Assembly (NCBI GenBank): GCA_963703285.1
Contig: OY969807.1
Location: 1,312,001 to 1,376,000, forward strand
DNA: 64,000 nt
Origin: an uncultured Nitrososphaerota archaeon
GTDB taxonomy: Archaea; Thermoproteota; Nitrososphaeria; Nitrososphaerales; Gagatemarchaeaceae
Direction of reading: 5' to 3'
Both the position numbers and the translations under genes were made by a program. The notes beneath the pieces were generated by a model, which did not search any database, was not told the DNA's origin, and worked only from the letters and a program-made list of their open reading frames with translations. Position 1 is the first letter of the stretch. The number at the start of each line of letters is the position of its first letter. Shown one piece after another: positions 16,372 through 55,089 of this stretch.

Positions 16372-16507
16372 TCTAACTAGACCAGTGGGCTGGTCCCTGG
16401 CACCTCAACTTAAAGGTTTTACAGAACCTGGGCCGCAAGACGGCGAAGTTTGGATGGGGGTTCCGGCATCACCTTCAACAACAGTTACTGGGATCGCTAG
16501 GGGCGTA

Positions 16508-16626
16508 GGTGCCGACATCGCCACTTCGCGAGGGCTCTCGCACCTCACTAACGTGGCGACGACGCGTGGTTTGACTTCTGGGTTCGGAGTGAGACCAGGT
16601 CGGACCCACACGCTATGGCCGGCTGG
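16508..16626 (-). rRNA. rrf: 5S rRNA, unlinked from 16S/23S
   Basis: GGCCATAGCG...CCGAACCCAGAAGTCAAACC...AGTGAGGTGCGAGAGCCCTCGCGAA; terminal helix GCCGGC/GTCGGC; promoter-like AAAGGTTAAT upstream. Confidence 0.93.
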
Positions 16627-20184: not shown

Positions 20185-20328
20185 GGGGGCGTAGCCTAGC
20201 CAGGTATGGCGACAGGCTCCAGTGGTCAAACTATCGAAAGTTTGATGACACCCAGGCGTGGATGATTAACCAGTTGGAGCGGCGAAGAAACCTGTAGGCC
20301 GCCGGTTCAAGTCCGGCCGCCCCCACCA
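20185..20328 (+). tRNA. tRNA-Trp(CCA) with 67-nt canonical intron (20223-20289)
   Basis: GGGGGCG/CGCCCCC acceptor, ACAGG-CT-CCA-G|intron|A-CCTGT, GGTTCAAGTCC, encoded CCA. Confidence 0.95.
20223..20289 (+). ncRNA. Intron-encoded box C/D guide RNA (Cm34 of tRNA-Trp)
   Basis: C box TGATGA 20243-48, C'-like TGATTA, guide TGGAGC complementary to GCTCCA; fifth nt upstream of D-like GCGA pairs with C34. Confidence 0.75.
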
Positions 20329-30339: not shown

Positions 30340-30966
30340 TTGGCCCGCCTGGGTCGGTCGTTCTATTCGAGGTACACGCCAGATGTCGCCAGGGACCTTC
30401 TCGGCAGCGTGCTCGTCAGGGTGCTGGACGGCGAGGAGCTCCGCGCAAGGATCGTCGAGGTCGAGGCCTACCGCGGCGCAGACGACCCGGCGAGTCACGC
30501 GTACAGGGGCATGACCAAGAGGACGTCCGTGATGTTTGGAGAGCCGGGGCACGCGTACGTCTACTTCACCTTCGGCTTTCACTACTGCCTCAACCTCACG
30601 ACCGAGGTGGAGGGGGAGCCCGGGGCCGTCCTGATTAGGGCAGTCGAGCCGCTCTCGGGAATCGAGGAGATGAGGAGGAGGCGGGGGGTCGAAGACCTCC
30701 TTAGGATAGCCAAGGGCCCAGGCAACCTGACAAAGGCCATGGGCATCGACCTGCGCCTGAACGGCGAGGACGTCGTCACTTCGAAGGAGCTCTTCGTGCT
30801 CTCAGGAAGGCCCGACGGCGAGGTGGCGGTCTCGACGAGGATAGGCATCAGTTCGGGAAAGGACAAGATGTGGAGATACTACATCAGGGGCAGCGCATTC
30901 GTTTCTGGCTCCAATAGGCATAACTACCGCACTCGCGAATCGGGCGGAAGAGGGGTCGTCGGCTAG
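30340..30966 (+). CDS. mpg: 3-methyladenine DNA glycosylase (MPG/AAG family)
   Basis: IVEVEAY...DPASH, MFGEPGHAYVY, AVLIRA, GPGNL, TRIGIS. Confidence 0.92.
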   Translation: MARLGRSFYSRYTPDVARDLLGSVLVRVLDGEELRARIVEVEAYRGADDPASHAYRGMTKRTSVMFGEPGHAYVYFTFGFHYCLNLTTEVEGEPGAVLIRAVEPLSGIEEMRRRRGVEDLLRIAKGPGNLTKAMGIDLRLNGEDVVTSKELFVLSGRPDGEVAVSTRIGISSGKDKMWRYYIRGSAFVSGSNRHNYRTRESGGRGVVG

Positions 30967-31042
30967 TCTGGTCCAGGCTTCAAACCTATGGGAAGCAGGC
31001 CTTGGGCGCTTGAGAGCGCCGGTTCAAATCCGGCCGACCCCA
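30952..31042 (+). tRNA. tRNA-Pro(TGG) with 15-nt intron in the 5' anticodon stem (about 29/30; 30984-30998)
   Basis: GGGGTCG/CGACCCC acceptor, GGTTCAAATCC; removal gives CAAGC-CT-TGG-GC-GCTTG and a 76-nt tRNA; GCTTC/GAAGC helix flanks the junctions. Confidence 0.85.
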
Positions 31043-53638: not shown

Positions 53639-53862
53639 CGCGTCTCACGCATGAAGGCGATGAGAGTGTTTCGGGTAATTGCTCCTAATCTGTCGGACCC
53701 GTCTAAAAGATGCACAGGGCTAAGAGGATACTCGACTGGTTTGGAGAGAGGGGAACTGTCCGTTCGAGGTTGGAGACTGCGGAGTTCTCTGGTGGGTGTC
53801 CACCTCCATGCCAAATACGCAAATACAGAAGAATAATAAACCGCTGATAATCCGCATGGGTC

Positions 53863-53983
53863 AGCGAGGGCAGCAGCGTGCGCTTTTGCGCCTGAAGAGG
53901 TGGGGAAGCCAGGTCATCCCGGCGGGCTCATAAGCCTCGGCAGAGAGACCCGCAGACCGGAGGTTCAAATCCTCCCCTCGCTA
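53863..53983 (+). tRNA. Initiator tRNA-Met(CAT) with an acceptor-stem intron plus a canonical 15-nt intron (53933-53947)
   Basis: 3' acceptor CCTCGCT-A needs 5' AGCGAGG (A1-U72), present at 53863 but separated from the D arm by 31 nt; GCGGG/CCCGC anticodon stem; GGTTCAAATCC. Confidence 0.85.
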
Positions 53984-54093
53984 CCTATTGTTTAGCGCGA
54001 AGCGCCGGTCCGACCATGAACTCCGTCTCGAACGCGCTGTGCGGCGGATGATCGCACGCTCGGCGGTCAACCGAGATGCGGCGACCAGCTCGC

Positions 54094-55089
54094 CTAGACC
54101 TCTTTCTCGAAGTTGCGCCAGATCGCGTACCTCCTGAAGCCGATCTTCCTGTTCAAGCCCAATATTGGCGCATTCTGAGAGTTGTTCCATGTCTTGACGA
54201 AGATCACGCCATGCTTCTTCGCCCAGAGCAGGGTGCGGAGCTTCAGGGTCTCGGCGATGCCCCTTCCCCTGAATTGACGCAGGACGCAGGTGAAACCGGT
54301 CGTGAGAAACCTCGGGTAGCCTTCGCCCTTCTGCAGGAAGCTCTCACCCACGTAGCTCCCCCGATGCTTCGCAATCACCCACGCGTCCTCGACGGTCCTT
54401 GGAGAATTGTACACCAGGTCCGCGTATTCCGAGAGCTGCATCCGTCGCCACCTGTCGGGCGCAGGCACGTCACGTCCCGCCTCGCTCTCCATCTCGTACA
54501 GATCCCGGGAGAACTCCGGGTTGGTATCCTTCTCCTCCGCGAAGGTGGTGAACGCTATCGATTCATCACCGAAGCCAGCTATCGCATCCTCGAGTCTGGC
54601 CTGGGTGATCCTGCGAAGGTCCAGCCTCGACTCGATGCTGCTGCTCACTTCTTGGAACCCTCCTCCCTTGAGGCGAGACGTTGAGAAACCGTCTCTGCTG
54701 CTAGCGAAGGCGGTGAGCAGCCGTGCTTTCCTGTCTCTCGCAGTGCGCTCCAACCGCTCGAAGAGCGCCTCCCAGACGGCCGATTTCCGGAACTTCCGGT
54801 CGACCTCGATGCTCACGTTGAGCTTCCCGGGTTGATACCTCTCGACGCGCTCAGAGATCTCCCCGCAGCCAACAACCCTTCCGTTGAGGCCGACCCCTAG
54901 GTATCGTCTCAGGAAGTACCCGTTTCGTCTGATGGTGGCATCTTCGTGCTTGAGCTCAGCCATGGAGAGCGCGTAGTCTGGCGCCGCCGAGTTGATGAGT
55001 CGCCTGACAGCAGGATAGTCTGAAGGGAGGAAGTCTCTCAGCCTTAAAGCGGGTAACGCAGCCCCCTTCGAACCCCTCGCGCCGGCCAA
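54094..55089 (-). CDS. Tandem GNAT acetyltransferase
   Basis: Two GNAT folds; FTCVLRQFRGRGIA, N.PILGLNRKIGF; start uncertain. Confidence 0.85.
   Translation of the reverse strand: MAGARGSKGAALPALRLRDFLPSDYPAVRRLINSAAPDYALSMAELKHEDATIRRNGYFLRRYLGVGLNGRVVGCGEISERVERYQPGKLNVSIEVDRKFRKSAVWEALFERLERTARDRKARLLTAFASSRDGFSTSRLKGGGFQEVSSSIESRLDLRRITQARLEDAIAGFGDESIAFTTFAEEKDTNPEFSRDLYEMESEAGRDVPAPDRWRRMQLSEYADLVYNSPRTVEDAWVIAKHRGSYVGESFLQKGEGYPRFLTTGFTCVLRQFRGRGIAETLKLRTLLWAKKHGVIFVKTWNNSQNAPILGLNRKIGFRRYAIWRNFEKEV

Follow-up and report, generated by a model that had tools for sequence, protein, structure and literature searches.

An initiator tRNA gene interrupted in its acceptor stem and preceded by a copy of the acceptor strand in an uncultured Nitrososphaerota archaeon

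A tRNA-Met(CAU) initiator gene in an uncultured archaeon of the Gagatemarchaeaceae (Nitrososphaerota) carries two introns, one at position 37/38 and one in the 5' strand of the acceptor stem, and ahead of the interrupted strand stands a further copy of that strand, in a layout that recurs in all interrupted initiator genes found in related genomes. The gene spans positions 53863-53983 on the forward strand of a stretch of 64,000 nucleotides, here called the window. With about even confidence, we read it as the functional and sole initiator tRNA gene of its genome, interrupted by two EndA-type bulge-helix-bulge (BHB) introns, with a leader copy and a 19-nt splicing route that work as proposed below. 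The acceptor-stem intron is of a known kind, a non-canonical BHB intron, and what is new is the conserved leader copy together with the double splice register.

Layout of the gene and its spliced product

The gene is preceded by a BRE/TATA-like A/T-rich box, GAAGAATAATAAA (53828-53840, +), a putative promoter element whose final aligned base lies 23 nt ahead of A53863 and which aligns with the GAAGGATATAAG-type box that congeners carry 22-24 nt ahead of the mature 5' end. The upstream copy of the acceptor 5' strand, AGCGAGG (53863-53869, +), is complementary at 7/7 positions to the 3' strand at 53976-53982, and is followed by a spacer, GCAGC (53870-53874, +), of which G53873 and C53874 are bases -2 and -1 of the central splice helix in the 19-nt register. 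In this register, which we favour, exon 1 is AGCG (53875-53878, +; tRNA positions 1-4), with a 3-nt bulge CG|T adjoining a 4-bp hairpin, and the intron at 4/5, TGCGCTTTTGCGCCTGAAG (53879-53897, +), would have a relaxed BHB geometry and consists of the hairpin GCGC-TTTT-GCGC (53880-53891), the helix strand CTGA (53892-53895) and the bulge bases AG (53896-53897); the alternative 31-nt register takes in 53867-53897. Exon 2 (53898-53932, +) covers positions 5-37, beginning with AGG (53898-53900), after which the letters read TGGGGAAGCC, and containing U8, the D arm, the anticodon stem and CAU; homology to relatives starts at 53897-53899. The canonical 37/38 intron of 15 nt (53933-53947, +), an ARAGORN intron call, has a central helix CTCA/AGAG with 3/4 pairs, an inner helix (h') of 2 bp and the 5-bp anticodon stem as its outer helix. 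Exon 3 (53948-53983, +) runs from position 38 to A73 at 53983, with the T arm at 53959-53975 and CCTCGCT at 53976-53982, and the CCA end is only partly encoded after A73, where the letters are CCT. The exons are collinear within 121 nt, which sets the gene apart from split and permuted tRNA genes, and no ORF of at least 80 aa is present over 53815-54075.

Both ARAGORN and the Rfam tRNA model (40.6 bits) place the start of the gene at 53894, with an acceptor strand GAAGAGG that forms only 5/7 pairs, and so both miss the acceptor-stem insert. When 53933-53947 is removed together with either 53867-53897 or 53879-53897, ARAGORN returns a perfect tRNA-Met(CAT) cloverleaf in which every arm is paired, the acceptor stem at 7/7 positions, in agreement with the initial annotation, which had described two registers that yield the same product. 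Archaeal initiator tRNAs are marked by a CAU anticodon, an A1:U72 pair and an anticodon stem with three G:C pairs at its base. The spliced product shows all of these, with A1:U72 and GGG/CCC at the foot of the anticodon stem beside its CAU anticodon, and the cloverleaf and initiator marks together bear out the earlier description of an initiator gene with one canonical intron and one acceptor-stem intron at 4/5.

The genome is a single 2.25 Mb contig with an estimated completeness of 96%. A blastn-short comparison of the spliced product with the whole genome recovered this locus alone, the next matches being 14-nt chance matches, and the only other CAT gene, at 917426-917547, is a non-initiator, with GGGCCCG as its acceptor strand. 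The initial annotation had asked whether this is the only initiator gene, and by blastn-short in this 96%-complete single contig it is the sole initiator-like locus. It had also named an assembly artefact as a possible source of the insert, which is present in contigs of two sequencing runs (X1, covering 53818-54200, and X2, covering 53873-54200) with 0 differences in each, both runs belonging to one study and X1 possibly being the source sample. The defective acceptor stem reported by standard tools might point to a pseudogene or an artefact; with the only initiator-like locus of the genome, perfectly conserved exons and the insert in the contigs of two runs, we consider either of these very improbable. 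The genome encodes two EndA paralogs of 269 and 181 aa, each with both the N and C domains (PF01974+PF02778), as well as RtcB (565.6 bits) and RNase P RNA (173.9 bits), and judged by these genes the host is predicted to have a two-subunit endonuclease and an RtcB ligase.

The SRP, RNase P and 5S models show the archaeal origin of the sequence; within the window the archaeal SRP RNA lies at 850-1161 (-; 109.7 bits) and the 5S rRNA at 16507-16626 (-; 60.1 bits). Two further tRNA genes lie in the window. One, at 20185-20325 (+), is a tRNA-Trp(CCA) with a long anticodon-loop intron (67 nt by ARAGORN, 71 unaligned nt by Rfam), and the other, at 30952-31042 (+), is called tRNA-His(ATG) by ARAGORN, while its acceptor stem and CTTGGGC loop point elsewhere; we suggest that it is a tRNA-Pro(TGG) whose D stem is interrupted on its 3' side by a non-canonical intron of about 20 nt. 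Across the whole genome there are only 25 Rfam tRNA matches at E <= 0.001 and about 30 credible ARAGORN genes, despite the estimated 96% completeness, and seven further ARAGORN calls require introns of 200-3000 nt and appear spurious. Multiple introns probably conceal many tRNA genes.

Interrupted initiator genes in the order

The genus comprises 23 genomes, and the short-intron pattern at 4/5 is found in 0/22 congeners of the window's genome; in the congeneric initiator genes examined AGCGAGG is uninterrupted and the introns lie in the T loop, T stem or D loop instead. The window's initiator gene is without the T-arm introns that congeners carry. Among 401 genomes sampled across the order the pattern occurs in 15, with 4/96 in family f1 in addition to the window's own genome, 4/9 in f4, 6/11 in f9 and none in the two largest families (0/112 each); these tallies take in three unpublished genomes (G140, G275, G286), from which no interrupted gene came. 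The acceptor-stem intron is thus less exceptional than the initial annotation implied in stressing its rarity. At the level of loci, 90 were classified, 78 as uninterrupted at the 5' strand, 9 as interrupted at 4/5 and 3 as unclassifiable, and 7 more interrupted genes from the pattern scan bring the set to 16; matches to the 5' pattern in G032:C1, G034:C74 and G354:C154, for which no 3' acceptor strand could be recognised within 330 nt, were left unclassified. The 16 initiator genes interrupted at 4/5 come from three families of one order and are not independent, representing roughly two to four lineages, and the versions in f9 and f4 may share one origin.

In the 15 relatives of the window's gene, the true exon stands in the context GT-AGCG, the central helix is GTAG/CTAC or GTAG/CTAT with 4/4 pairs, the inner helix has 3-8 bp and the 3-nt bulges are CG|A or CG|T on one side and AA|G, AG|G or AA|A on the other. 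The inner copy is AGCG in every one of them. Leader bases -2 and -1 belong to the central splice helix in 16/16 interrupted genes. Throughout this order, initiator tRNA genes are hot spots for introns, with recurrent sites in the D loop, at 37/38, in the T stem and in the T loop (59/60-like), and the number of introns per gene is none in 4, one in 9, two in 44, three in 26 and four in 4 (n=87). These counts and the statistics on canonical introns are all that we took from a spliced alignment in which the mature sequence of the window's gene served as reference for the 90 initiator loci. Registers in it are unreliable where the exon differs, with misplaced introns in the 'var', T-stem and 4/5 classes and in part of the D-loop class, and the 4/5 class was recomputed with a forced register. 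A contig from a run of another study (X5) matches exon 3 only, at 53948-53985 with 5 differences, and reads ...GGGCTCATA just before it; by its sequence, this contig represents a relative whose initiator gene is without the canonical intron.

The leader copy and the two splice registers

All 16 interrupted genes have a pairing-competent acceptor-strand 7-mer 10-16 nt upstream of exon base A1, which pairs with the 3' strand at 7/7 positions in 14 genes and at 6/7 in 2. The spare acceptor strand that the initial annotation saw in the window's leader, able to pair with the 3' end, is therefore not only complementary at all seven positions but part of a layout conserved in 16/16 interrupted genes. 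The copy reads AGCGAGG in the window, GGCGAGG in G027, GGCGGGG in G056, AGCGGGG in G085, G111 and G103 and AGTGGGG in eight f9 genomes, and the two copies with 6/7 pairs, AGCGGAG and AGCGGGA, are in two f9 genomes. Among uninterrupted genes a 7/7 match within the 40 nt upstream occurs in 2/78, and at -10 to -16 in 0/78; the comparison of 2/78 with 16/16 shows that the upstream copy exceeds chance. The two uninterrupted genes that have GGCGAGG upstream carry it at -21 (L036, in G003) and at -36 (L096, in G070), perhaps by chance, perhaps as the trace of an intron cassette since lost.

The position of the copy is as regular as its sequence. The A/T box has its peak 26-31 nt ahead of the mature end in the 78 uninterrupted genes. 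In the 16 interrupted genes the distance is 24-33 nt to the copy and 35-44 nt to the true exon, so that the copy takes the place at which an uninterrupted gene would start to be transcribed. A pyrimidine precedes the copy and its first base is a purine in 16/16. The copies have drifted, and most of the changes (A1 to G, C3 to U) retain pairing through G.U, but would destroy A1 or C3 if the copy served as exon; since, moreover, the inner copy is always AGCG, it is the inner copy that is the exon in the relatives. The case for selection on the copy consists of few substitution events. We think that the leader copy probably holds the precursor together during splicing. As to origin, a tandem duplication of 10-12 nt of leader and exon was considered as the source of the intron, and with copies that align at about 8/12 positions it is not demonstrable.

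Tandem copies of an acceptor strand are not confined to the initiator gene. A T-arm scan of the genome with a matching 5' strand found them in three other genes, among them tRNA-Gln(UUG) at G000:C1:859563-859606 (-), which reads AGCCCGG-A-AGCCCGG-TGG and then has a 19-nt intron at 10/11, with a central helix on positions 5-8 (4/4 pairs) and an inner helix of 4 bp. The structure of this gene was re-derived exhaustively and is the sole result kept from a greedy procedure of BHB removal and ARAGORN rescoring over 35 tRNA regions, which over-fitted (identities changed and intact tRNAs were trimmed) and was not used as an inventory. An exact tandem AGCCCGG copy is present in the Gln genes of 5/23 congeneric genomes (L145-L149), with spacers A, AAGC or AGGA (1 or 4 nt), and all five carry an intron of 18-19 nt; the copy follows a TTTTTAA box at a distance of 23-24 nt, forms pairs with the 3' strand in 5/5 minimum-energy folds and, being without U8, cannot be an exon. 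The one uninterrupted Gln gene that a companion pattern brought up, in G018, gave no match to the tandem pattern. The tRNA-Asn(GTT)-like gene at G000:C1:892482-892660 (-) has GGCGCTG-CAT-GGCGCCG and about three introns (in the D loop, around position 26 and in the anticodon loop), and because the first of these lies in the D loop, tandem copies are not strictly tied to introns of the acceptor strand. A Ser(TGA)-like gene at about G000:C1 1870192-1870330 (-), missed by both ARAGORN and Rfam, has GCCGGGG-AAT-GCCGGGG in front, a canonical 13-nt intron and further inserts.

For the geometry of the splice sites we applied the BHB rule of two 3-nt bulges with a 4-bp helix between them and a cut after the second bulge base, checked on the canonical introns of relatives (CTCA/TGAG). 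Under this rule the 31-nt and 19-nt registers rebuild an identical AGCG|AGG junction at 4/5 and have in common the 3' site, CTGA followed by the bulge AG|A (53897/98). The 31-nt register has a central helix TCAG(53861-64)/CTGA(53892-95) with 4/4 pairs, an inner helix of 1 bp and a 5' cut in a 15-nt loop, and the 19-nt register has GCAG(53873-76)/CTGA with 3/4 pairs and a G53873.A53895 mismatch, 3-nt bulges and an inner helix of 4 bp. The outer helix is 0 in either register, both being relaxed forms of the BHB, and a central helix of 3/4 pairs is also found in 31/63 of the canonical initiator introns tabulated for the clade, the window's own included. In the window's gene the C at -1 with G opposite is compensatory relative to the T:A of relatives, and the T53861:A53895 pair of the 31-nt register relative to their G:C or G.U. 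In minimum-energy folds the copy is paired with the 3' strand in 16/16 precursors (7 pairs in 14, and 6 and 5 in the others) and exon 1 is paired with it in 0/16; the BHB helix itself forms in 2/16, which counts against the model we favour. For the window's precursor the free minimum is -63.1 kcal/mol, a fold forced to the 19-nt BHB has -55.2 kcal/mol and keeps the leader helix, and one forced to the 31-nt BHB has -46.6 kcal/mol and breaks it.

If the 31-nt register were the one used, AGCG at 53863-66 would be exon 1, 53867-97 including the inner AGCG would all be intron, the leader would shrink to 2-3 nt and TCAG/CTGA would present the bulges CG|A and AG|A. Such a reading gains from its perfect 4-bp central helix on -2/-1, like that of the relatives, in which A53895 fits T53861 and not G53873, from the placement of AGCGAGG at 53863, whose distance from the promoter box is that of the ancestral mature 5' end, and from a leader left without a competing acceptor strand; two-subunit endonucleases are, moreover, reported to cut relaxed motifs in work described in PMC4090602 and PMC5829648. 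It would nevertheless put the 5' site into a 15-nt loop with h' = 1, where all 15 relatives have a 3-nt bulge and h' of at least 3, at a cost of 8.6 kcal/mol over the 19-nt fold because the acceptor helix is opened, and its upstream helix appears in 0/16 minimum-energy folds. If transcription starts at A53863, T53861 and C53862 would be absent from the RNA altogether, and in the relatives the upstream copy, with G1 or U3, cannot be an exon. On balance we judge exclusive use of the 31-nt register unlikely. Use of both 5' sites with the one 3' site at 53897/98, as a redundant or fail-safe arrangement for the same mature tRNA, would make sense of the identical product and of the double register with exact copies that f4 genomes G085, G111 and G103 also have (32 vs 18 nt), but the two helices would compete for the same CTGA while standing 8.6 kcal/mol apart, and in most relatives only the inner site yields a proper initiator sequence; we hold this dual use to be quite improbable.

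A different doubt concerns the copy and not the register, for the 19-nt register could be correct and the copy functionless, a vestige of the former 5' strand that remained after insertion of a cassette (spacer, AGCG, intron and AGG) at 7/8. The copy does stand at the ancestral +1 position, the intron, species-specific within its genus (0/22 congeners), may be recent, and a duplicated tRNA 5' fragment accompanied intron gain in Caldiarchaeum as described in PMC3293823. Copies are, however, kept across the f9 and f4 genera and in five Gln genes while the flanking leader, spacer and intron interior vary, most of their drift retains pairing, and only 2/78 uninterrupted genes have one, so that a mere footprint seems to us improbable. 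The recurrence in relatives of the leader copy and of the 3-nt bulge with its hairpin is the reason why we favour the 19-nt register.

A proposed splicing path and its place among known systems

We infer every step of the following path at the RNA level, with the 19-nt register as the favoured one. Transcription would start at or within about 2 nt of A53863, as the spacing of the box suggests, so that the transcript would open with AGCGAGG. The leader copy, and not the true 5' strand, would then pair with 53976-82 into a full acceptor-like helix, with the 31 extra nucleotides looped out between positions 7 and 8. Within this loop (G)CAG at 53873-76 would pair with CTG(A) at 53892-95 beside the GCGC hairpin, and at the resulting bulges, CG|U and AG|A, the endonuclease would excise the 19 nt at 53879-97 and, in the same way, the 15-nt canonical intron. 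The 7-bp leader helix would tether the freed 4-nt exon to the tRNA body while RtcB joins AGCG to AGG, and the continuous true strand, AGCGAGG-U8, could then displace the identical leader copy. Only at that point would a site for RNase P exist, at which the 12-nt leader would be removed (53874/75). In either register, the use of leader bases -2/-1 by the splice helix implies by its geometry that the RNase P site forms only after splicing. The order of splicing before RNase P proposed by the initial annotation thus gains from the presence of -2/-1 in the central helix in 16/16 genes, while its further idea of a control point on initiator tRNA supply is unsupported.

Somewhat short of even confidence, we tentatively extend this path to a general and selected device, in which a leader copy would stand in whenever a BHB intron occupies the acceptor 5' strand; it would fold the precursor, tether a micro-exon of as little as 4 nt and force the order of splicing, strand exchange and RNase P cleavage, and its location at the old +1 position would record intron gain through insertion of an exon-duplicating cassette.

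Non-canonical BHB introns include the 3/4 acceptor-stem introns of Thermoproteales (Sugahara 2008, cited in PMC4090602), and two-subunit endonucleases occur in Thaumarchaeota (PMC4090602); for gene prediction, tRNAscan-SE 2.0 is described as extending candidates by 60 nt for end-proximal introns and as having a Thaumarchaeota-specific intron model (PMC8450103). The gene resembles the non-canonical introns of Crenarchaeota and Thaumarchaeota as portrayed in PMC4090602 in its presumed protein splicing at a non-canonical site, its candidate relaxed BHB, the two endonuclease paralogs of the host and the presence of several introns, and differs from the Thermoproteales 3/4 introns described there in that the site is 4/5, the tRNA is the sole initiator, and there is a leader copy and a double register. 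A recent, lineage-specific gain of a non-canonical intron also recalls the intron transposition families of Thermoproteales (Fujishima 2010, cited in PMC4090602), but, unlike the transposed introns treated in PMC4090602, this one has no sequence relative that we found, and its hairpin is unique in the genome. In the genome, GCGCTTTTGCGC occurs once, GGCAGCAGCG has 6 sites, none of the others in a tRNA, and no similar intron is present in other tRNA genes of the genome, as a transposed intron family would have. An exact scan for CTGAAGAGGTGGGGAAGCC in public genome and metagenome contigs, a scope that perhaps left the window's own genome outside, gave 4 + 3 matches, all 7 of them chance matches outside tRNA genes.

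A further parallel is found in the split tRNAs of Nanoarchaeum equitans described in PMC4033280, in which extra complementary sequence outside the mature tRNA holds the pieces together and builds a relaxed BHB, and splicing precedes formation of the final ends, as is proposed here; whereas the leader-trailer duplex reported there joins two transcripts, the window's gene would work in cis, its helper being the duplicate of one tRNA strand, paired with the tRNA's own 3' acceptor strand. The tRNA-Thr of Caldiarchaeum subterraneum, with a duplicated 5' piece upstream of the intron-bearing copy, is a model for the origin of such layouts, but the fragment described in PMC3293823 is 1.8 kb or >500 kb away and linked to a mobile element, whereas here the copy is 7 nt long, stands 1-9 nt upstream, is predicted to lie within the transcript and is conserved. 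Full-text literature searches, supplementary tables aside, turned up no account of 5'-proximal introns accompanied by an acceptor-strand copy in the leader, nor of the double register that results from it.

An initiator tRNA is essential, and where it is encoded by a single copy, as here, the cell cannot do without accurate excision of an intron that splits off an exon of 4 nt. That the leader copy recurs points to a simple way in which archaea could splice introns that disrupt the acceptor helix, with an order of splicing before RNase P built in, and a tandem acceptor strand at the start of transcription is a signature by which gene finders could recognise miscalled tRNA genes.
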